From the NCBI RefSeq assembly GCF_056746865.1, contig NZ_CM163382.1: a stretch of 64,000 bases of DNA; one strand, given 5' to 3'. Position numbers and translations under genes: made by a program. Every line of letters begins with the position of its first letter. Positions within the stretch are counted from its first letter, which is position 1. Below, piece by piece: positions 936 through 12,978 of the stretch. The notes beneath the pieces are model-generated. The model was not told where the DNA came from. It made no database searches and saw nothing but the letters and a program-made list of their open reading frames with translations.

Positions 936-1454
936 ATGCCAACCCCATGTTACATTTCAATTACAGGTCAGACCCAGGGGAACATCACTGCCGGTGCTTT
1001 CACCGCAGATTCTGTCGGCAATATCTACGTGCAGGGACACGAAGATGAAATGCTGGTGCAGGAGTTTCTGCATAACGTTACTGTTCCAACCGATCCACAG
1101 TCTGGTCAACCTTCCGGGCAGCGCGCGCACAAACCGTTCATTTTCACCGTGGCGCTGAACAAAGCCGTTCCGCTGCTGTACAACGCGCTGGCCTCCGGTG
1201 AAATGCTGCCGAAAGTGGAGCTGCACTGGTGGCGTACTTCAGTTGAAGGCAAGCAGGAGCACTACTTCACCACACGTCTTACTGACGCGACGATTGTGGA
1301 CATGAACCTGCACATGCCGCACTGCCAGGACCCTGCACAGCGTGAGTTTACGCAATTGCTCGCAGTATCACTGGCATACCGTAAGGTTGAGTGGGAGCAC
1401 ATCAAATCCGGTACTTCTGGTGCCGATGACTGGCGTGCACCGCTGGAAGCATAA
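936..1454 (+). CDS. hcp: T6SS tube protein Hcp (TssD)
   Basis: 172-aa ORF MPTPCYISITGQTQGNITAGAF...HWWRTSVEGKQEHYFTTRLTDATIVDM, a typical Hcp1-family sequence. Confidence 0.9.
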   Translation: MPTPCYISITGQTQGNITAGAFTADSVGNIYVQGHEDEMLVQEFLHNVTVPTDPQSGQPSGQRAHKPFIFTVALNKAVPLLYNALASGEMLPKVELHWWRTSVEGKQEHYFTTRLTDATIVDMNLHMPHCQDPAQREFTQLLAVSLAYRKVEWEHIKSGTSGADDWRAPLEA

Positions 1455-1674: not shown

Positions 1675-3633
1675 ATGTCCTTAAAAGGTCTGCGCTTTAC
1701 GCTGGAGATTGACGGCCAGGAGCCGGACACCTTTGCAGTGGTGCATTTCAGGTTAATCCAGAACCAGTCTTATCCGTTTGTGATGAGTGTGGATGTTGCC
1801 AGCGACTCTTTTATGCAGACGGCGGAGATGCTGCTGGAGAAGAAGGCGACGCTGACCATCTGGCAGGGCGTCATCCCGCTGCGTTATGTCACCGGCGTGG
1901 TGGCGGGTTTTGGCATGCAGGAGAACAATGGCTGGCAGATGCGTTATCACCTGCGTATTGAGCCGCCGTTATGGCGGTGCGGGCTGCGGCAGAACTTCCG
2001 TATCTTCCAGCAGCAGGATATCCGGACGATATCGGCCACGTTACTGAACGAGAACGGCGTCACGGAGTGGACACCGCTGTTTTATGAGGACCATCCGGCG
2101 CGGGAGTTCTGTGTCCAGTACGGGGAAAGCGACCTGGCGTTTCTGGCGCGGTTGTGGGCGGAGGAGGGAATTTTCTTCTTTGAGCGGTTTGCGGCGGACA
2201 GTCCGGAGCAGAAGCTGACGCTGTGCGACGATGTGGCGGGGCTGTCACAGGCGGGAGAGCTTCCGTTTAACCCGGACACATCGGCAGGAGCGGAGACAGA
2301 GTGTGTCAGTATGTTCCGTTATGAGGCGTATGTCCGCCCGTCGTCGGTGCAGAGCCAGGATTACACGTTTAAGGTGCCGGACTGGCCGGGGATGTATGAG
2401 CAGCAGGGTGAGAACCTGAACGGACAGCTGGAGCAGTATGAGATATTTGATTATCCGGGAAGGTTCAAGGATGAACAGCACGGCAAGGATTTCACGCTGT
2501 ACCAGATGGAGAGCCTGCGCAGTGATGCGGAAAAGGCCACAGGGCAGAGTAATTCACCGAAGCTGTGGCCGGGAACGCGGTTTACGCTGACGGGGCATCC
2601 GCAGAAGATGCTGAACCGTGAATGGCAGGTGGTACAGAGTATTCTGTCAGGGGACCAGCCGCAGGCGCTGCACGGCAGCCAGGGGAGAGGAACCACGCTG
2701 GGAAATCAGTTAGAGGTGATACCGGCGGACCGGACGTGGCGTCCACGGCTGCAAAGCAAACCGAAGGTGGACGGGCCACAGAGCGCCATTGTCACCGGTC
2801 CTGCGGGAGAGGAAATCTTCTGCGACGAACACGGACGTGTGCGAGTGCAGTTTCACTGGGACAGGTATAACCCGGCAACGGAGGCGAGTTCATGCTGGGT
2901 GAGGGTGTCGCAGGCGTGGGCGGGGCCGGGATTTGGTAACCTGGCGATACCGCGCATCGGCCAGGAAGTGATTGTAGACTTCCTGAACGGCGACCCGGAC
3001 CAGCCGATAATCATGGGGCGGACGTACCATGAGGACAACCGTTCGCCGGGGAGTCTGCCGGGGACGAAGACGCAGATGACGATACGGTCGAAGACCTATA
3101 AAGGAAGCGGCTTTAATGAACTGCGGTTCGAGGACGCGACGGACAAGGAAGAAATTTACCTGCACGCACAGAAAAATATGCAAGTCGTTGTGCTGAACAG
3201 CAAGGATAAGCGGGTCAACTATGACCGGACGGTCAGCATCGGGCATGATGAATCCCTGGTGGTGGCAAATGACCGGAAAGTGACGGTTGAAGGTAAACAG
3301 GACCATAAAACCACCAAAGACCATGTCAGCCTGACAGAGGGCAATCAGGGGCTGGAGGTGAAAGGCGATCTGGCACAGAAAATAAGCGGCGCGCTGGGTA
3401 TCAGCGTACAGGGCGATATTGTTTTACAGAGCGACAGCAAAATCAGTCTGCGGGTGGGCGGTTCATTTGTGGTGATCCATTCCGGCGGCGTGGATATTAA
3501 GGGCGCGAAAATCAATCTTAACGGCGGAGGCAGTCCGGGAGACGTGATCCTGCCGATGCGCCCGGTGATCCTGAAAGCCGCAGCCGGAAGCGGGACAATG
3601 TTTGTGGCGCACTGCCCGAAGGAGGATAAGTGA
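1675..3633 (+). CDS. vgrG: T6SS spike protein VgrG (TssI)
   Basis: 652-aa ORF with the VgrG N-terminal region (LRFTLEIDGQEPDTFAVVHF...) and gp27/gp5-like content; directly downstream of hcp. Confidence 0.9.
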   Translation: MSLKGLRFTLEIDGQEPDTFAVVHFRLIQNQSYPFVMSVDVASDSFMQTAEMLLEKKATLTIWQGVIPLRYVTGVVAGFGMQENNGWQMRYHLRIEPPLWRCGLRQNFRIFQQQDIRTISATLLNENGVTEWTPLFYEDHPAREFCVQYGESDLAFLARLWAEEGIFFFERFAADSPEQKLTLCDDVAGLSQAGELPFNPDTSAGAETECVSMFRYEAYVRPSSVQSQDYTFKVPDWPGMYEQQGENLNGQLEQYEIFDYPGRFKDEQHGKDFTLYQMESLRSDAEKATGQSNSPKLWPGTRFTLTGHPQKMLNREWQVVQSILSGDQPQALHGSQGRGTTLGNQLEVIPADRTWRPRLQSKPKVDGPQSAIVTGPAGEEIFCDEHGRVRVQFHWDRYNPATEASSCWVRVSQAWAGPGFGNLAIPRIGQEVIVDFLNGDPDQPIIMGRTYHEDNRSPGSLPGTKTQMTIRSKTYKGSGFNELRFEDATDKEEIYLHAQKNMQVVVLNSKDKRVNYDRTVSIGHDESLVVANDRKVTVEGKQDHKTTKDHVSLTEGNQGLEVKGDLAQKISGALGISVQGDIVLQSDSKISLRVGGSFVVIHSGGVDIKGAKINLNGGGSPGDVILPMRPVILKAAAGSGTMFVAHCPKEDK

Positions 3634-4472
3634 TGGAAACGGCACCCGTGCAGTACGCCATTGTGGATGGCGCTGTGGAGGAAGGATTGCTGGATTTTCT
3701 GAACGAGGTGAATCCCCCGCACTGTTGTCTGTATGCAGAACCCATACAACTGGATCTGGTCGCGCTAGCCCCCTATCTCGTGGAAGTCGTTCCGGAGGTT
3801 GAAGCATGGCTGAGTGTTAAGGCGTCGCCATGGGGAATATATCTGACTTCTGAGTCATCCATGCGTGAGCTACAGCAACACTTCAGACGTTATCTGTGGG
3901 TTAGGATCCCCGAACAGGAGAAACCTGTTCTCATGCGATTTTATGATCCCCGGAATATATGGGTATTAGTGGAAGTTCTGACCCCCCGCCAGCGTCTTTC
4001 TTTTATCAGTCCCGTCAGACAGCTAAGTACCCGTTATGGTGAAGAATGTCGTGAGGATAATTTTTCTTCCGTCCGTCCCGCAGAAACTATGAATATAAGG
4101 GCAGAACGGCCATCACAACTGACGCTGAGTTACAGACAATATAGCCAACTGGAACGAAAGGCACGGGATAATTATCTTGATATATTATCTGCATTTATCG
4201 AAGAAAATGTAGATAAAAACGGATGGGATGATTCATCAAAAGCTGAATCATCCCGAATTCTGGCAGAAGATTATTTCTCTTTTTGCCAGTCATTAAATAT
4301 AGCAGATGATCGTTCCGTCAGAACAATGACGCTTATATTACTGAAAAAAAATATAATCGATCTCAGATATATTCCGGATGACTGGTATGAACAACTCAGC
4401 AATCAGTCATACCCGGGACATATTCGGGTACATGAACTTGCACAACAGGAACTGGGATTTATCCCACAATAA
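3630..4472 (+). CDS. DUF4123-family T6SS effector adaptor (Tap/Tec-like)
   Basis: 280-aa ORF overlapping the vgrG stop (ATGA); N-terminal YAIVDGA motif typical of DUF4123 adaptors. Confidence 0.7.
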   Translation: MMETAPVQYAIVDGAVEEGLLDFLNEVNPPHCCLYAEPIQLDLVALAPYLVEVVPEVEAWLSVKASPWGIYLTSESSMRELQQHFRRYLWVRIPEQEKPVLMRFYDPRNIWVLVEVLTPRQRLSFISPVRQLSTRYGEECREDNFSSVRPAETMNIRAERPSQLTLSYRQYSQLERKARDNYLDILSAFIEENVDKNGWDDSSKAESSRILAEDYFSFCQSLNIADDRSVRTMTLILLKKNIIDLRYIPDDWYEQLSNQSYPGHIRVHELAQQELGFIPQ

Positions 4473-4493
4473 AAAGACAAACGGATAGATTAT

Positions 4494-6065
4494 ATGACAT
4501 CTCCATCTTCGACAGCCGGAAAGCCCTGTGTGGAATGCGGCATTCCTGATCCATGTATTTTTGATGTTATTAGTGATTTTCCAGAGGCCGGCGAGAAACA
4601 TTTCTGGTCAAAAGAAGGAGTGGCGCGTTTTAAGCTACTGGATGATGGTTCCGGATGTGATGGTATAATTACCATTACCTACCAGTGCGATAAAAGTGGA
4701 ACACATGAGGCATGGTTAGAGGAAGAATCAGAAAATAATCATAAGATACTGCAACCTTTCGGAATACCTAATAAGGTCACTTTGGATGATAACTTGTCTG
4801 AAGGTGAAATAATTGCTATGGGTACATTTCGAGTACCATGGGATTATTTGGGGGCAATATCCTCTCCACTTAAGAATCATTATGAACCTGCCCATTATTC
4901 AGTCAGAATTGACAGTTGTTACGAATGTGGCAATTATGTTGAAATTGATGTTTATCCTACAGTGGAAATTAGGTTTACTACAGGGTTCAGCTATGAGATT
5001 TCGTCATCAAAACAGACGAGAACAGTAAAAGAGCGGCGTGACGAAAGAATAAAAGCCAGGGACGCAATGGAGAACACCAAGCCCAGGGATAAAAATAAAC
5101 TCCGTAGCGGCTGGACAAATACCACTGCTGAGTTTGAGTGGATAAACAAGACTTCCCTGACTGTCGATTTTGGCGTAAAAATAGCTAATGTTGAACACAC
5201 AAGTGAATATGAAAAAGAGATAAAAAAACTTCGACAAACAAAGCAACTGGAACAGATAGGAAGAATTGACTCTCTGGTCAAGAATGTCAATAAATATTTT
5301 GCGCCAGATCCTGACAATAATAATGGTACGCGCAAATATGCATTGTTCAGTGCAAAAATAGAACCCGTTAAACTGGGTATATCGTATGCCTATCAATATA
5401 CCGATATCCAGGATGGCCCCTGTCATTTTTATGGTTTGTTTGGTGCCCCATTTTTTGAAGCGTCGTTCAGATTCGATATTATTTCATTTATATGTGCATA
5501 TTGTAAAGTCGAGTCATTGGTCAACAGATGTCGTGAATATCTCCGTAAAAACGGAGCCAGTGTTGAATGCTATATCGAGATTTCAGCGGAGATTAATCTT
5601 GATCTTGGCGCAGTATACGCTGAAAAGGATAAAAAATGGGAGTTTAATGTAAAGGAAAGTAACATCAAGCTCGGTTTAAAAGGTGTGGTGAGTGCGACGT
5701 TTGAGGCGAATGTTTTTGTTGTACAACTGACCGCCGAAGCGACTGCCTCTATAGAAGCGAAAGCTGGATTTGGATTTGATTCACATGATGACGGACTGGA
5801 CCTAGCATTATTTCATGACGGCATTAAAGGGAAGTTTGAATTTAAGATTGATGTGTCTCATGGTGAAGTTGATGAAAAAGGAAAGGGGAAGGAAAAGAGC
5901 GAAAAACCTGAGAAGAAAGATACCGTTGAGTGGCAGTTATGTGATCCTATGGAGGTAAAGGATTCACCATTACGGGTTAATTTATACGGTAAAGAACGCA
6001 CTGTGGAGAAAAAAGTAACACCGCCGAAGCCAGTGACAACGTGGACGATAGGTATGGATTATTAA
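4494..6065 (+). CDS. Candidate T6SS cargo effector, activity unknown
   Basis: 523-aa AT-rich ORF immediately after the DUF4123 adaptor. I recognise no catalytic motif; Lys/Glu-rich C-terminus. Confidence 0.45.
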   Translation: MTSPSSTAGKPCVECGIPDPCIFDVISDFPEAGEKHFWSKEGVARFKLLDDGSGCDGIITITYQCDKSGTHEAWLEEESENNHKILQPFGIPNKVTLDDNLSEGEIIAMGTFRVPWDYLGAISSPLKNHYEPAHYSVRIDSCYECGNYVEIDVYPTVEIRFTTGFSYEISSSKQTRTVKERRDERIKARDAMENTKPRDKNKLRSGWTNTTAEFEWINKTSLTVDFGVKIANVEHTSEYEKEIKKLRQTKQLEQIGRIDSLVKNVNKYFAPDPDNNNGTRKYALFSAKIEPVKLGISYAYQYTDIQDGPCHFYGLFGAPFFEASFRFDIISFICAYCKVESLVNRCREYLRKNGASVECYIEISAEINLDLGAVYAEKDKKWEFNVKESNIKLGLKGVVSATFEANVFVVQLTAEATASIEAKAGFGFDSHDDGLDLALFHDGIKGKFEFKIDVSHGEVDEKGKGKEKSEKPEKKDTVEWQLCDPMEVKDSPLRVNLYGKERTVEKKVTPPKPVTTWTIGMDY

Positions 6066-6131
6066 GTGATATTACAGAAATTAAAAGTGAACAGTATAAT
6101 GAGTATTTTCCCCTTTTGAGAGAGAATAATT

Positions 6132-7142
6132 ATGAAGGCAAAACATTTAATATCGGTTATTTTACTGTCAGGAGTTGTTATGGGAACTGGATTTTGCTCT
6201 AACGATAACCAGCAAAAAATTCGCAGTAAGTTTAATATTGAAGAGTCATATTGTGCCATTAAGACTAATGGCGTCCTCGGGTTCAGTAACCGAAGAAGTG
6301 CCTGGCGGGCAAATGGTGATTCAACCGGGGCCATATCCAGCACCAATGCCATGATGCTGATGGCGAATGGAGAAAATGAAATCAGTCTGGAGATTGGGGC
6401 ATTAGGATGGTTTTCTGACAAGCCTGCCAGTATGGAAGAACGGGGGCGTTTTTTTCCAAAAGCAGGATGCAGCCTGGATTTGGTTCGTTTTATTAAACAG
6501 GAGGAAACGCTGCTTTCTTCAATAAAAGTGACCATCAACCAGCAGGGCATACCTGAAGCCCGGCCAGACAGCGTGCATCCCGTTATCCGGAAAGAGATTT
6601 TGGCTGAGCAGGCGGAGCCAGGATTTATTGATCCAGATTATTTTGATGAAACCTATTTCCCGAAAGGGATGAAGGTGTATCAGTTCACTCAAAAAGTTAC
6701 CGTGACAGGGCTTCCTGAATGGGCCTGGACGCGGGCAACCCCCTATACCGGAAGCGACGAGCAGTTACGGAAGTTAAAAGCCGCCTATACCGAAATGGCA
6801 AGCATCATCAGTAGCCGGGACAGGGCACGTCTGAAAGCTTATAACAAAGAGGCGCTGAAGGCATGGTCAGCCACAACCGGTGACTCTGAGGATGACATAT
6901 TACTCTCACTCTTCTCAAAAGATAATGTGGAGGGAGGGAAAGCCAGAATGCAGCCCATCAGGTGGGACGATTATGCCGTCCGGGTTATGAATGGTGGACG
7001 TATGGTGCAGCTATATAATAAATCGAAACCAATATATTCCCCACTGACTTACCGTTTTACAGATGAAAGTGGTGAAGAGCGTATGGGGTATTACGCTCCG
7101 GTATTTTCGCTGATTGATGGTCAGTTTATCCCTGTTACTTGA
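6132..7142 (+). CDS. Candidate cognate immunity protein, secreted or lipoprotein
   Basis: 336-aa ORF with N-terminal signal peptide MKAKHLISVILLSGVVMGTGFC (lipobox-like Cys); position directly after the candidate effector. Confidence 0.4.
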   Translation: MKAKHLISVILLSGVVMGTGFCSNDNQQKIRSKFNIEESYCAIKTNGVLGFSNRRSAWRANGDSTGAISSTNAMMLMANGENEISLEIGALGWFSDKPASMEERGRFFPKAGCSLDLVRFIKQEETLLSSIKVTINQQGIPEARPDSVHPVIRKEILAEQAEPGFIDPDYFDETYFPKGMKVYQFTQKVTVTGLPEWAWTRATPYTGSDEQLRKLKAAYTEMASIISSRDRARLKAYNKEALKAWSATTGDSEDDILLSLFSKDNVEGGKARMQPIRWDDYAVRVMNGGRMVQLYNKSKPIYSPLTYRFTDESGEERMGYYAPVFSLIDGQFIPVT

Positions 7143-7172
7143 TTAACCTGTTGGGCTACAAATCAGGATGTC

Positions 7173-7216
7173 CGGTAAGGTGATTATTACTGAGTTAAGC
7201 ACCTTACCGTTTTTTA
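7173..7216 (+). terminator. Rho-independent terminator closing the hcp–vgrG–effector unit
   Basis: Stem cggtaaggtg / caccttaccg followed by TTTTTT. Confidence 0.5.
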
Positions 7217-8379
7217 AATTTTTTGTCGCTGATATTCCAGACAGGAAAACAATATGCCTTTAGCTGCCAGATTAAACGACAAAGGTACCGGCACAGGGAA
7301 AGATCACGTAACGCTGCTTTTTTGTACTAAATAATTCGCATTTTATGTTTAAAATTTGAGATATTCCTCATTACCTGAGGCTGTTTTTTATTACTTATAC
7401 ATGATCAAATACTCCTTACATAATTAAGGGGAACAAAATGGAACTTAAAAATTGATGGAACATATTTCTGTTATTCCCGATTACAGACAAGCCTGGAAAG
7501 TGGAACATAAATTGTCGGATATTCTACTGTTGACTATTTGTGCCGTTATTTCGGGTGCAGAAGGTTGGGAAGATATAGAGGATTTTGGGGAAACACATCT
7601 CGATTTTTTAAAACAATACGGTGATTTTGAAAATGGTATTCCTGTTCACGATACCATCGCCAGAGTTGTATCCTGTATCAGTCCTGCAAAATTTCACGAG
7701 TGCTTTATTAACTGGATGCGAGATTGCCATACTTCAGATGATAAAGACGTCATCGCAATTGATGGAAAAACGCTCCGGCACTCTTATGACAAGAGTCGCC
7801 GCAGGGGAGCGATTCATGTCATTAGTGCGTTCTCAACAATGCACAGCCTGGTCATCGGACAGATCAAGACGGATGAGAAAACCAATGAGATTACAGCTAT
7901 CCCAGAACTTCTTAACATGCTGGATATTAAAGGAAAAATCATCACAACTGATGCGATGGGTTGCCAGAAAGATATTGCAGAGAAGATACAAAAACAGGGC
8001 GGTGATTATTTATTCGCTGTAAAAGGAAATCAGGGGCGGCTTAATAAAGCCTTTGAGGAAAAATTCCCACTGAAAGAATTAAATAATCCAGAGCATGACA
8101 GTTACGCAATGAGTGAAAAGAGTCACGGCAGAGAAGAAATCCGTCTTCATATTGTTTGCGATGTCCCTGATGAACTTATTGATTTCACGTTTGAATGGAA
8201 AGGACTGAAGAAATTATGCGTGGCAGTCTCCTTTCGGTCCATAATAGCAGAACAAAAGAAAGAGCCAGAAATGACGGTCAGATATTATATCAGTTCTGCT
8301 GATTTAACCGCAGAGAAGTTCGCCACAGCAATCCGAAACCACTGGCACGTGGAGAATAAGCTGCACTGGCGTCTGGACG

Positions 8380-10270
8380 GTGTGCCGCAGGAACACAAGA
8401 TAGCTGCATAAGGATACGCAGTTAGCTTTTGTATAAGCTCATAAAGAGATGGTGGAAGGCCCACCGGGATCGGCTGTCGGAAGCAGATTCCAAACCACTT
8501 CATGCTGCTGTGGTAAAGAGCCATGGTAGTGAGCGATGAAGTAAAGCGTGAGTGAAAACTCAGCAGGTAAGATACTCATGAGACGAGTGAACCCGAACCC
8601 ATGTTGACGCGTCGTAAACCAGAGACTGACATCAAAACCGAAGGGGCGTCCAGCCTTCGGGATAAGTCTGCGAGTGAATTCCGAATGCTGCGCAGACGGT
8701 GTCCGGCGTAAAGTGGGCGTGACGGAGTATCAGGCTCTTCCTGGGAACTGCGGGAACCTGTCGTTGTGATGATAAGGGAGAAATGCAAGTCACTGAATTG
8801 GCGAGCATGAAAGTACCGATGCACAGCACAGGGACGGAGCCGTTCGTAGTAGTGATGAAGCTTCTGTAATGGAGGTGGAGCGAAGGGGCGGCATCAGACA
8901 GTCTTTGGACAGTGTTCAACTGAACATGTTCAGGAGGAGACAATGACAAAGACAAAAGCGTTTAACATTGATAAGTCACTGGTGGTCAGCGCGTACAGGC
9001 GAGTGAAGACCAGTGCAGGCGCGGCGGGAATTGATAAGCAATCGCTGGCGGACTTTGATAAACGGTTAGTTGATAATCTGTACAAAATCTGGAACCGACT
9101 TTCTTCAGGAAGTTATTTCCCACCGGCAGTGAAAGCGGTGGCAATTCCGAAGAAATTGGGTGGAGAGAGAATTCTGGGTATCCCGACAGTCAGCGATCGT
9201 ATCGCGCAGACGGTGGTAAAACTGGCCTTTGAGCCACAGGTTGAGCCACATTTTCTGGCAGACTCTTACGGCTACAGACCGAATAAATCGGCACTGGATG
9301 CTATAGGGGTAACGCGTAAGCGTTGCTGGTATTACGACTGGGTACTGGAATTTGACATCAAAGGGCTGTTCGATAACATCCCGCACGAACTGATAATGAA
9401 AGCCGTGGACAAACACAATCCGGCCCGGTGGGTAAAATTGTATATACAGCGGTGGCTGACAGCGCCGATGGTGATGTCAGACGGAGAAGTCAGAGCACGA
9501 ACAATGGGAACGCCGCAGGGAGGTGTCATAAGTCCGTTGCTGGCAAACCTGTTCATGCATTATGTGTTTGATAAATGGCTGGCAAAATATTATCCGAAAG
9601 TGCCGTGGTATCGATATGCTGATGATGGCATTTTGCATTGTCACAGCGAAGCAGAAGCGACTGAAATGCGAGAAGTATTACGCAAAAGATTTAGCGAATG
9701 CGGACTGGAAATGCATCCGGAGAAAACGCGAGTTATCTACTGCAAAGATGGAAGCCGGAAGGGTGATTATGAACATACCATGTTCGACTTTCTGGGGTAC
9801 ACATTCAGGCGACGCGTAGTAAAGAACGTTAAGCGAAACAGTCTGTTTGTAAGTTTTACCCCCGCAGCGAGCAAATCAGCGCTAAAGGCAATGCGTCGGG
9901 AAATCAAAGCGACAGGGATAAGGAAAAGAGTGGATTTAAGCATTGAGCAGATAGCGAAATGGATAAATCCAAAACTGAATGGCTGGATAAATTATTACGG
10001 GCGATATACCTGTTCGGAATTATACAGCGTGTTCAGATATATCAATAAAGCACTGGTGAGGTGGGGGCGTAAGAAATATAAAATGCTCAGCCGATACAAG
10101 ACAAGAGCCTCAAAATTTCTGGAAGAAATGGCGAAGCGAAGTCCACAGTTGTTTGCCCACTGGCGTCTGAAGATGAGAGGCGGACTTGTTTGATGGGAGC
10201 GGTATGAGCCGAGAGGTTCACGTACCGTTCTGCGAGAGGCTGCGGGGGAGGTTCCTGCGGCCTACTCACC
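8380..10270 (+). mobile_element. Group II intron (bacterial, with RT/maturase ORF)
   Basis: Boundaries from aligning interrupted copy 1 to uninterrupted copy 2: shared …cgtctggacg | intron starts GTGTGCCG … ends …cctactcacc | tggtaatgaatg resumes. Domain V-like GAGCCG…CGTACCGTTC lies just after the RT stop. Confidence 0.7.
8943..10193 (+). CDS. Group II intron-encoded reverse transcriptase/maturase
   Basis: 416-aa ORF with RT motifs (…RYADDG… YADD box) and a maturase X-domain motif (NGWINYYG). Confidence 0.85.
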
Positions 10271-10493
10271 TGGTAATGAATGAAGACGACTGCAAAATAA
10301 GAAGAGGAAATGCAGCAGAATTATTTTCAGGGATACGGCACATCGCTATTAATATTTTGACGAATGATAAGGTATTCAAGGCAGGGTTAAGACGTAAGAT
10401 GCGAAAAGCAGCCATGGACAGAAACTATCTGGCGTCAGTCCTTGCGGGGTGCGGGCTTTCGTAATCTTTCCCTGGATGTGAAAAGCAGCTGCG

Positions 10494-11779
10494 GACAGGG
10501 AAAGATCATCAGAAGTACACTTTTTGTACTAAACAATTCGCATTTTATGTTTAAAAATTGAGATATTCCTCATTACCTGAAGCTGTTTTTTATTGCTTAT
10601 ACATGATCAAATACTCCTTACATAATTAAGGAGAACAAAATGGAACTTAAAAAATTGATGGAGCATATTTCTATTATCCCCGATTACAGACAAGCCTGGA
10701 AAGTGGAACATAAATTATCGGATATTCTACTGTTGACTATTTGTGCCGTTATTTCTGGTGCAGAAGGTTGGGAAGATATAGAGGATTTTGGGGAAACACA
10801 TCTCGATTTTTTGAAGCAATATGGTGATTTTGATAATGGTATTCCTGTTCACGATACCATTGCCAGAGTTGTATCCTGTATCAGTCCTGCAAAATTTCAC
10901 GAGTGCTTTATTAACTGGATGCGTGACTGCCATTCTTCAGATGATAAAGACGTCATTGCAATTGATGGAAAAACGCTCCGACACTCTTATGACAAGAGTC
11001 GCCGCAGGGGAGCGATTCATGTCATTAGTGCGTTCTCAACAATGCACAGCCTGGTCATCGGACAGATCAGGACGGATGAGAAATCTAATGAGATTACAGC
11101 TATCCCTGAACTTATTAACATGCTGGATATTAAAGGAAAAATCATCACAACTGATGCGATGGGTTGCCAGAAAGATATTGCAGAGAAGATACAAAAACAG
11201 GGAGGTGATTATTTATTCGCTGTAAAAGGAAACCAGGGGCGGCTAAATAAAGCCTTCGAGGAAAAATTTCTGCTGAAAGAATTAAATAATCCAGAGCATG
11301 ACAGTTACGCAATTAGTGAAAAGAGTCACGGCAGAGAAGAAATCCGTCTTCACATTGTTTGCGATGTCCCTGATGAACTTATTGATTTCACGTTTGAATG
11401 GAAAGGTCTGAAGAAATTATGCGTGGCAGTCTCCTTTCGGTCAATAATAGCAGAACAAAAGAAAGAGCCCGAAATGACGGTCAGATATTATATCAGTTCT
11501 GCTGATTTAACCGCAGAGAAGTTCGCCACAGCAATCCGAAACCACTGGCACGTGGAGAATAAGCTGCACTGGCGTCTGGACGTGGTAATGAATGAAGACG
11601 ACTGCAAAATAAGAAGAGGAAACGCAGCAGAATTATTTTCAGGGATACGGCACATTGCTATTAATATTTTGACGAATGATAAGGTATTCAAGGCAGGGTT
11701 AAGACGTAAGATGCGAAAAGCAGCCATGGACAGAAACTACCTGGCGTCAGTCCTTGCGGGGAGCGGGCTTTCGTAATCT
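10494..11779 (+). mobile_element. H-repeat (ISAs1-family) element copy 2, intact
   Basis: Left IR acagggaaagatca and right IR tcttgccctg; direct orientation, about 20 bp after copy 1. Confidence 0.75.
10640..11776 (+). CDS. H-repeat-associated ISAs1-family transposase
   Basis: 378-aa [35 protein letters not shown]… uninterrupted. Confidence 0.85.
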
Positions 11780-12465: not shown

Positions 12466-12978
12466 ATGAATAAACGGATTGAATGTGTTATGTTAAAAAT
12501 AAGTTTATACGTAATAATATTGTTATTTTCCTTTCAGATTAGTGCAGCCATTACTAGCAAGGAAAGTGAGGTTGTTTCACCATTATTAATGGATGTTAAT
12601 TCTTCACTAACAATGGAAAATATTTCTGAATTATCCACATCATCGGAACCATCGCAACAGGGGGTATTTCCTGTAATATGTACTCGACTTCATCCTGGCT
12701 CCGTAATGAAACGCCAGTTATTAACCGGCTGGGGGCCTGTTTTTATAATTGGTGATGATCCTTTTTCTCTGCGCTGGATGAGTGAACATCTGGAGATCCT
12801 TAAATCGCTAAATGCCCTTGGTTTGGTTGTTAATGTTGAATCAGTAGAACGAATGGAGGTATTACAGCAGCGGGCTGATGGGTTATTGTTATTGCCAGTT
12901 ATCTGCGATAATTTCGTGCAAACTCTGCAATTAAATGCTTATCCGGTATTAATCACAGAGATGGAAATATCACAATGA
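12466..12978 (+). CDS. Hypothetical secreted/membrane protein
   Basis: 170-aa ORF with a hydrophobic N-terminal segment (ISLYVIILLFSFQISAAITS); low GC. Confidence 0.35.
   Translation: MNKRIECVMLKISLYVIILLFSFQISAAITSKESEVVSPLLMDVNSSLTMENISELSTSSEPSQQGVFPVICTRLHPGSVMKRQLLTGWGPVFIIGDDPFSLRWMSEHLEILKSLNALGLVVNVESVERMEVLQQRADGLLLLPVICDNFVQTLQLNAYPVLITEMEISQ

Follow-up and report, generated by a model that had tools for sequence, protein, structure and literature searches.

A candidate type VI secretion cargo effector and its periplasmic partner in Escherichia coli, and their kinship with the Photorhabdus L–S proteins

A 64,000-nucleotide stretch of contig NZ_CM163382.1 (NCBI RefSeq assembly GCF_056746865.1), hereafter the window, carries two adjacent genes at positions 4494-7142, behind hcp, vgrG, and a DUF4123 adaptor gene of a type VI secretion system (T6SS). 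Of the two, the first encodes a 523-residue protein, here called L, and the second a 336-residue protein with a predicted signal peptide, here called S. Profile comparisons place the pair as a distant member of the L–S family described in Photorhabdus, and we consider it probable that L is a polymorphic T6SS cargo effector and S its cognate periplasmic neutralizing protein, working by the mechanism proposed below. Toxicity of L, its export by the T6SS, and protection by S are what we infer from the genes and their relatives; the loading of L, its secretion, the compartment in which it would act, and its mode of action are proposed in the same sense.

These genes have a published history. Casiano González et al. 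(PeerJ 2024, PMC11114119) described ECUMN_0231 and ECUMN_0232 together with ECUMN_0233 of the uropathogenic E. coli (UPEC) strain UMN026, located downstream of vgrG in T6SS-2, and proposed that they encode a chaperone, an effector, and an immunity protein. The proposal drew on the DUF4123 domain of ECUMN_0231, Bastion6, SignalP, AlphaFold 2 (AF2) docking, reverse transcription PCR (RT-PCR), and competitions between wild-type strains. ECUMN_0232 spans 1,572 bp and ECUMN_0233 spans 1,011 bp, the latter with the signal peptide MKAKHLISVILLSGVVMG, for which SignalP 6 is cited (PMC11114119). The window agrees with UMN026 in the lengths and order of the genes, and the third protein starts with the same 18 residues, MKAKHLISVILLSGVVMG, in both. 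Judged by the lengths, the order, and the printed signal peptide, the window genes are ECUMN_0232 and ECUMN_0233, seen at the same locus in another phylogroup D strain.

The initial annotation of this DNA, made from the sequence alone, had called the candidate effector unrecognized. That description has to be given up, as the same genes were proposed in 2024 (PMC11114119) and the wider family was described in 2020 (PMC10392669). Because PMC11114119 proposed these very genes, the candidate effector and immunity protein were already known, and the gain of the present work is consolidation, not discovery. What we add is the link to the L–S family, the equivalence of the hypervariable loop, a cassette structure with its boundary near codon 80 of L, the synteny and S arrays, and fold predictions; of these, the L–S homology, the loop, the allele structure, and the fold are absent from the 2024 account.

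Results

Relationship to the Photorhabdus L–S family

The L and S open reading frames (ORFs) encode conserved proteins and are not chance ORFs. L has 37 homologue clusters across Enterobacterales, compared with 193 for S. Full-length L homologues with 35-77% identity occur in Escherichia, Salmonella, Citrobacter, Enterobacter, Buttiauxella, Rahnella, Pectobacterium, Dickeya, and Klebsiella; all are labelled 'hypothetical' and none has a Pfam domain. A search with the L profile against 1.84 billion representative proteins returned only 80 relatives, among them proteins of ~510-600 residues from Morganella, Photobacterium, Photorhabdus, Xenorhabdus, Serratia, and Salinivibrio. Altae-Tran et al. 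(QRB Discovery 2020, PMC10392669) had described the proteins matched in Photorhabdus thracensis under the name 'L'.

Alignment of the E. coli L family with Photorhabdus L by hhalign covered residues 5-494 and 3-529, respectively, at 99.7% probability (E 8.7e-26), and the corresponding S families aligned at 99.8% probability (E 2.9e-29). Photorhabdus L was also recovered by hmmsearch (E 2.2e-25), and Photorhabdus relatives by Foldseek (E 1e-16). The remote-homology check that the initial annotation had recommended for the 523-residue ORF leads to Photorhabdus L; sequence and profile searches with L and S, and with their distant relatives, returned no significant match in Pfam, NCBIfam, PHROGs, or the Protein Data Bank (PDB), the Pfam search having covered single sequences and every member of the two family alignments.

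Altae-Tran et al. described tandem pairs of a ~530-residue cytoplasmic L and a ~300-residue S with a signal peptide, located downstream of idsB (vgrG) and idsC (DUF4123), and found a hypervariable C-terminal insert of 17-19 residues in L (PMC10392669). In yeast two-hybrid assays with two Photorhabdus pairs, adjacent L and S bound specifically, and the insert alone set this specificity, which changed when only the 17-19 residues were swapped (PMC10392669). The window pair shares the protein sizes, the signal peptide on S only, the position downstream of vgrG and DUF4123, and, in L, a polar, hypervariable insert that lies ~45 residues before the C-terminus. Window L is thus homologous over its full length, lacks a signal peptide and transmembrane segment, and stands in the order VgrG, DUF4123, L, S; window S falls in the family range of ~300-340 residues, has an N-terminal Sec signal peptide, and is homologous to Photorhabdus S. 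On these sequence features, we assign the pair to the family as a distant member.

The two systems also differ. Identity is only ~19% for L and 21-23% for S. E. coli has one pair per module, whereas Photorhabdus has tandem arrays of up to eight pairs; the P. thracensis locus reads vgrG–DUF4123–PAAR followed by at least eight L–S pairs, counted over two overlapping stretches. The PAAR gene lies within that locus but outside the module of enteroaggregative E. coli 042, to which the window corresponds (see below). Finally, E. coli alleles differ across most of L past residue 80, whereas variation in Photorhabdus L is centred on the insert.

A hypervariable loop in L

The initial annotation had noted a Lys/Glu-rich C-terminal tail on L. 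The stretch is there (residues 450-482, 52% Lys, Glu, Asp, or Arg), but it is an internal loop, ~45 residues before the C-terminus. Column entropy in the enterobacterial L family peaks at residues 451-480 with 2.1-2.2 bits, among the highest columns; residues 101-110 reach 2.6 bits, and variability over the last ~20 residues matches or exceeds that of the loop. In the structural model, the per-residue confidence (pLDDT) falls below 50 at residues 458-469, and the two major E. coli alleles are 47% identical across the loop window.

The eight L copies of P. thracensis differ mainly within a 19-residue segment (residues 488-506), with only scattered substitutions elsewhere, and hhalign places this segment against residues ~453-479 of E. 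coli L. A polar insert of variable length occupies the same position in all 29 aligned superfamily members, between a conserved L-V-x-[FY]-H-x-G-I strand and a W…S-x-[YL]-R strand. By alignment, the Lys/Glu-rich stretch is the predicted counterpart of the specificity-determining insert of Photorhabdus L.

Two alleles and a boundary inside L

The pair is present in 329 of 5,426 complete E. coli genomes (~6%). Its carriers include uropathogens of phylogroups D and B2 and strain SYNB1934, a derivative of Nissle 1917. Two major alleles account for most carriers: 173 genomes are at least 99% identical to the window, and 148 carry a second allele at ~81.6%, found in strains such as SYNB1934 and clone D i14. 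The module occupies different chromosomal sites in 042 and SYNB1934. In the latter, it belongs to an orphan island adjoining ansP/yncG (NZ_CP080246.1, 3268470-3283074) with the order PAAR–vgrG–DUF4123–L–S–PAAR–vgrG–M35 peptidase. Because a PAAR–vgrG–'peptidase M35' module follows the L–S module, two or more VgrG cargo modules stand in tandem in the Nissle lineage.

Divergence between the alleles is unevenly distributed. VgrG is 96.9% identical at the amino acid level with a synonymous divergence (dS) of 0.18, the DUF4123 protein is 94.3% identical (dS 0.10), and codons 1-80 of L encode 93-100% identity (dS 0.08-0.18). From codon ~81, amino acid identity falls to 47% at 81-120 and at 441-480, and dS runs from ~0.8 to saturation; every measurable window past codon 80 has a dS of at least 0.8, and most are saturated. 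S is 84% identical with a dS of 0.54. Because VgrG, the DUF4123 protein, and L residues 1-80 are shared while the remainder has diverged, the exchange boundary lies inside L, near codon 80. The swapped cargo cassette suggested by the initial annotation is real, although its edge does not coincide with a gene border.

The co-inheritance of L residues 1-80 with the spike and adaptor is best explained if these residues form a loading domain. This segment contains a C-x2-C-x5-C motif, of which C15 and C21 are invariant in the L superfamily. The allele pattern implies that a loading domain forms the N-terminus and that the toxin–immunity cassette behind it can be swapped; the breakpoint at codon 80 would then mark where the delivery domain ends. 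In the published AF2 docking of ECUMN_0231 on ECUMN_0232, contacts fall at residues 6-40 (PMC11114119).

Base composition had been the earlier ground for a cassette, both genes having been described as AT-rich. This is correct for L (40.4% GC), while S is only modestly low (46.6%), set against 57.5% for vgrG and 52.3% for the whole window. The drop begins inside the DUF4123 gene, which has a GC content of 51% over its first half and 39.0% over its second. As the whole DUF4123 gene is nevertheless 94% identical between alleles, the compositional and recombination boundaries differ.

Conserved gene order and S arrays

Hidden Markov models for L, S, VgrG, DUF4123, and PAAR were run on related loci, many of which were chosen through an S match and some of which overlap. 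Wherever enough upstream flank was present, the order was VgrG–DUF4123–(PAAR)–L–S(n)–(PAAR) on one strand, as seen in eight genera (Escherichia, Klebsiella, Pectobacterium, Serratia, Photorhabdus, Lelliottia, Siccibacter, and Brenneria). The pair therefore shows the linkage of a T6SS effector–immunity pair, with vgrG and adaptor neighbours and the candidate immunity gene directly downstream.

S matches outnumber L matches by 125 to 74 in the examined loci, with truncated ORFs and overlapping loci included in both counts. In many loci, 2-5 S copies stand behind one L; in one, eight S genes accompany only L remnants. A Pectobacterium locus has three S paralogues, 69-73% identical and all with signal peptides, behind one L. 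In E. coli SCU-176, a rearrangement involving the insertion sequence (IS) IS1 deleted the 3' end of vgrG, the DUF4123 gene, and L, leaving S (second allele) intact. The arrays suggest an accumulation of immunity-like genes, and extra S copies together with an S kept alone form the pattern that would be expected of immunity genes.

Two further observations concern these loci. Photorhabdus heterorhabditis and three other loci carry 4-8 tandem S genes behind a single L or L remnants, far beyond E. coli. In SCU-176 (positions 2202-6987 of the examined locus), two IS1 copies bracket an inverted segment with hcp and the truncated vgrG, and S adjoins a PAAR–vgrG–DUF2169–PAAR-like module.

S as an exported protein

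The initial annotation had described the 336-residue protein as secreted, and the signal peptide is indeed predicted and conserved across the family. Signal peptides of S proteins typically end in ANA or ASA, the Kyte-Doolittle maximum is 1.72 at residues 5-23, and S has no membrane segment besides the signal peptide. In E. coli 042, RefSeq starts S at 6180, which gives a 320-residue product without a signal peptide; the start at 6132 is supported because the N-terminal signal peptide is conserved in the family alignment. The predicted structure consists of a β-sandwich and a C-terminal NTF2-like domain, a fold that several families of immunity proteins in polymorphic toxin systems reportedly share (Zhang et al. 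2012). The suggestion that S is a lipoprotein (PMC11114119) was rejected as a family feature, since Cys22 is not conserved (it is Tyr in the second E. coli allele) and the canonical lipobox is unmatched.

NCBI applies the name 'IdsF' to many proteins of ~312-315 residues from Serratia, Pectobacterium, Brenneria, Lonsdalea, and Pluralibacter. These are S homologues, with 32% identity to Photorhabdus S (E 1e-47), and a Serratia fonticola locus has an 'IdsF'-named gene after an L-family gene, behind vgrG–DUF4123. A cluster look-up had placed 315-residue 'IdsF' proteins beside an L-like representative, but BLASTP showed no likeness to L, and this lead was rejected.

The L protein and its predicted fold

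L has a polar N-terminus (MTSPSSTAGK), no signal peptide, and no transmembrane segment (maximum 19-residue hydropathy 1.19). Regular-expression searches of L found no GxSxG, HxKxxxxD, MIX (central hRxGhhYhh), or PAAR motif. L accordingly lacks the signature of MIX effectors, and in the absence of GxSxG, HxKxxxxD, and any DUF2235 or lipase domain (Pfam, NCBIfam), also that of the Tle phospholipases. The earlier statement that L has no recognizable catalytic motif is upheld by these searches and by the empty Pfam, NCBIfam, PHROGs, and PDB results.

The predicted structure is a β-rich fold with long amphipathic β-hairpins and two helices, without an annotated relative; the β-rich body spans residues ~130-500. 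In a 29-member superfamily alignment, only C15, C21, C142, P319, and D328 are invariant and H441 nearly so, and conservation is otherwise only 27% per column.

Foldseek matches to the L model include uncharacterized proteins of 650-1,080 residues from Flavobacterium, Niabella, Colwellia, and others (E 1e-9 to 1e-14), among them A0A226GVR6, A0A226GSR8, and A0A1A9I4X3. Weaker matches of 1,020-1,080 residues have annotated fibronectin type III domains. The β-rich body of L may, going by these models, be used as a module outside Enterobacterales and outside VgrG–DUF4123 contexts.

Genomic setting

Window positions 3600-7300 are 100% identical to the chromosome of enteroaggregative E. coli 042 (NC_017626.1, 266483-270183). 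This part of the T6SS-2 cluster is its hcp/vgrG end, with tssB–tssM immediately upstream on the opposite strand in 042. The order hcp–vgrG–DUF4123–523-residue ORF–336-residue ORF with signal peptide, as first read from the sequence, is present, and its families and coordinates are confirmed (Table 1).

Table 1. Coordinates of features in the window
Feature	Position	Strand	Evidence and remarks
hcp (TssD tube protein), first gene of spike/cargo operon	936-1454	+	NCBIfam TIGR03344, E 3.4e-62
vgrG (TssI spike), 652 aa, presumed cargo carrier	1675-3633	+	Intact ORF; TIGR03361, E 2.5e-179
DUF4123 (Tap/TEC-type) adaptor/chaperone gene	3630-4472	+	Start overlaps vgrG stop; RefSeq 'DUF4123 domain-containing protein' in 042
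L-family protein, 523 aa (1,572 bp), candidate VgrG-loaded cargo effector	4494-6065	+	= ECUMN_0232; WP_001306805.1
Proposed loading (adaptor/VgrG-binding) domain, L codons 1-80	4494-4733	+	Allele dS; C-x2-C-x5-C (C12, C15, C21)
Hypervariable Lys/Glu-rich loop of L, codons ~453-479	5850-5930	+	Entropy; low pLDDT; alignment to Photorhabdus insert
Sigma-70-like promoter match in L–S spacer	6071-6100	+	ATTACA-18-TATAAT, 10/12 positions; consensus match only
S-family protein, 336 aa (1,011 bp), candidate periplasmic immunity protein	6132-7142	+	= ECUMN_0233; WP_000536467.1 (truncated start)
S signal peptide, aa 1-21	6132-6194	+	Hydrophobic segment conserved in 22 homologues
Group II intron RNA domain	8451-8568		Rfam match, RF01999
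Intron-encoded reverse transcriptase/maturase	8943-10193		
Group II intron RNA domain	10195-10270		Rfam match, RF00029
ISEc1	10640-11776		Intact copy

RefSeq labels hcp of 042 as an 'Hcp family type VI secretion system effector' and flags its vgrG as a C-terminally incomplete pseudogene, despite the intact 652-residue ORF. Window VgrG is 96.9% identical to the 652-residue VgrG annotated as intact in SYNB1934, and the pseudogene flag is probably wrong. The DUF4123 gene product has a weak Tla1 match (E 4.5e-10), and in Pectobacterium, Klebsiella, Photorhabdus, and Serratia loci, the protein encoded at this position carries a PF13503 record. The L–S spacer measures 66 bp, and the consensus match within it may give the candidate immunity gene a promoter of its own, in keeping with an independent expression of S, at which RT-PCR in UMN026 isolates hinted (PMC11114119).

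Downstream of S, the island is broken up by mobile DNA. An ISAs1-family transposase gene (7452-10464) is interrupted by a group II intron, with a 3' transposase remnant after the intron. Among IS remnants between the T6SS island and yafV, a gene for a PFL_4695-family integrating-conjugative-element protein (12466-12978; TIGR03765, E 2e-35) points to more mobile-element debris at this hotspot.

Discussion

In the mechanism that we propose, L would be made in the cytoplasm without a signal peptide, its Cys-rich first ~80 residues would be held by the DUF4123 adaptor and mounted on the 652-residue VgrG spike, and T6SS-2 would inject it into a Gram-negative neighbour's periplasm. In that compartment, the β-rich body (residues ~130-500) would damage the envelope, either by permeabilizing the membrane or by blocking an envelope component. 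Sec-exported S would bind L and so protect sister cells, with specificity coming largely from the polar loop at residues ~453-479. A non-enzymatic action on the envelope appears most likely from the model and is the weakest step of the mechanism. We lean towards it because conservation in the superfamily is structural and not catalytic, no enzyme fold is detectable, the β-hairpins are amphipathic, and S is periplasmic.

The proposed arrangement has well-known counterparts. Vibrio cholerae TseL/TsiV1 and VasX/TsiV2 and Pseudomonas aeruginosa Tle1 are DUF4123 (Tap-1/TEC)-dependent VgrG cargo effectors with periplasmic immunity proteins. L–S shares with them the layout vgrG–DUF4123–effector–immunity, an effector without a signal peptide, an exported partner (predicted here), and a possible separate promoter for the immunity gene. 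In contrast to these systems, L has no lipase, colicin-like, or other recognized toxin domain, its predicted fold has no annotated relative, specificity would be concentrated in a short loop, and L–S is known from its genes and from binding in Photorhabdus.

An effector–immunity pair fits the synteny, the arrays of periplasmic partners, the cassette, and the Photorhabdus binding data, so the core of what was first proposed for this locus is retained, with its novelty, the gene-border cassette, and the terminal tail corrected. Support comes from conserved gene order, homology to Photorhabdus L–S, immunity-like behaviour of S genes, a polymorphic-toxin architecture, the absence of an enzyme signature, and work on UMN026. 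This strain transcribes the genes, and RT-PCR detected ECUMN_0233 expression where vgrG and ECUMN_0231 were not expressed (PMC11114119). UMN026 also reduced an isolate lacking the genes and Enterococcus faecalis, but not an isolate carrying them (PMC11114119).

Several points weigh against an effector–immunity pair. The competitions pitted wild-type strains against each other and included no T6SS, effector, or immunity mutants, and the reported 'killing' of Gram-positive E. faecalis is unexplained by a toxin acting in the periplasm (PMC11114119). The discoverers of L–S favoured recognition over killing (PMC10392669). The constellation C142/H441/D328 is conserved, so that a hydrolase of an unrecognized kind remains a candidate. 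With dS between the two E. coli alleles at saturation, positive selection cannot be demonstrated for the loop, and we make no claim of it. Finally, the literature searched contained no study showing secretion of L, its toxicity, or neutralization by S.

The discoverers' preference corresponds to the alternative that fares best, namely that L–S is a non-lethal self/non-self recognition pair in which T6SS-transferred L, by binding or not binding the S of the recipient, changes behaviour, like IdsD–IdsE of Proteus mirabilis. The P. mirabilis Ids system (IdsA-F; Gibbs et al. 2008) mediates non-lethal self-recognition, for which IdsF, a protein without reported function, is required. In both Ids and L–S, hcp, vgrG, and DUF4123 precede a variable pair with allele-specific binding, which defines identity in Ids, and the second partner occurs in extra copies. 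Altae-Tran et al. argued for recognition from allele-specific binding, a localized hypervariable determinant, and the ids-like idsB/vgrG and idsC/DUF4123 context (PMC10392669); up to eight tandem L–S pairs per genome do resemble an identity barcode, and many S-family proteins bear the NCBI name 'IdsF'. That name is untraced to the P. mirabilis protein, and no Proteus locus emerged from a scan of a genome collection with a single peptide pattern. If P. mirabilis IdsF belongs to the S family, the Ids operon would hold an S-like periplasmic protein. The Proteus pef operon (PefD/PefE) was also considered as a relative and rejected, PefD being a PAAR-HNH nuclease. IdsD and IdsE are membrane-embedded, whereas L has no transmembrane segment and S only a signal peptide, and PMC10392669, from which we judge homology, found L and S unrelated to them in sequence. 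Loci with one L and additional S genes, or in which S has outlasted L, are moreover typical of toxin defence. We regard a recognition pair as rather unlikely.

Somewhat less likely still is an enzymatic toxin, in which L would be an envelope hydrolase of an unrecognized family (acting, for example, on peptidoglycan or lipid) with Cys142, His441, and Asp328 at its active site and S still its immunity protein. Periplasmic immunity proteins mostly accompany peptidoglycan hydrolases and phospholipases, and the invariance of C142 and D328, with H441 close behind, stands out in so poorly conserved a superfamily. C142, however, more probably forms a structural cluster, of the metal or disulfide type, together with C15 and C21.

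It is very improbable that L is a structural or accessory part of the spike, such as a co-adaptor or a VgrG/PAAR cap, with S an unrelated, linked periplasmic protein. L always accompanies VgrG and DUF4123, usually with a PAAR gene, its N-terminus is co-inherited with both, and it has no toxin motif. Structural parts, however, are not hypervariable, do not occur in eight tandem partnered copies, and do not bind a secreted protein allele-specifically; and with only 80 family members among 1.84 billion proteins, L must be missing from most T6SS loci. Least probable of all is an anti-eukaryotic effector serving urinary-tract or gut virulence, with a role for S other than immunity: the genes, once proposed as a biomarker of urinary tract infection (UTI), have been reported as over-represented in UTI isolates (Nielsen 2017) and T6SS-2 is often linked to virulence (Journet & Cascales 2016), both as cited in PMC11114119, and L has relatives in the insect pathogens Photorhabdus and Xenorhabdus, but PMC11114119 found no association with UTI symptoms, the pair also occurs in the probiotic Nissle lineage and plant-associated Pectobacterium and Dickeya, and a dedicated, co-varying, Sec-exported partner is the signature of antibacterial effectors.

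Returning to L as a cargo effector, a bolder version can be entertained, though we think it doubtful. L would then be the founder of a new class of non-enzymatic T6SS toxins, a β-rich, barrel-like protein that jams or inserts itself into an envelope component of Gram-negative cells and whose recognition by the antidote lies almost entirely in a hypervariable loop of ~20-30 residues. If this were true, L–S would be a naturally 'programmable' toxin/antidote or kin-recognition barcode in UPEC, the Nissle lineage, and insect and plant pathogens.

Together, these findings connect a published E. coli candidate pair to the Photorhabdus L–S family and, through this link, put a binding assay and a defined, swappable loop at the disposal of experimentalists. 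Should L be a toxin, it would act in a new way, since no known fold or motif matches, and its short specificity loop would provide a compact handle for studying and engineering effector–immunity recognition.

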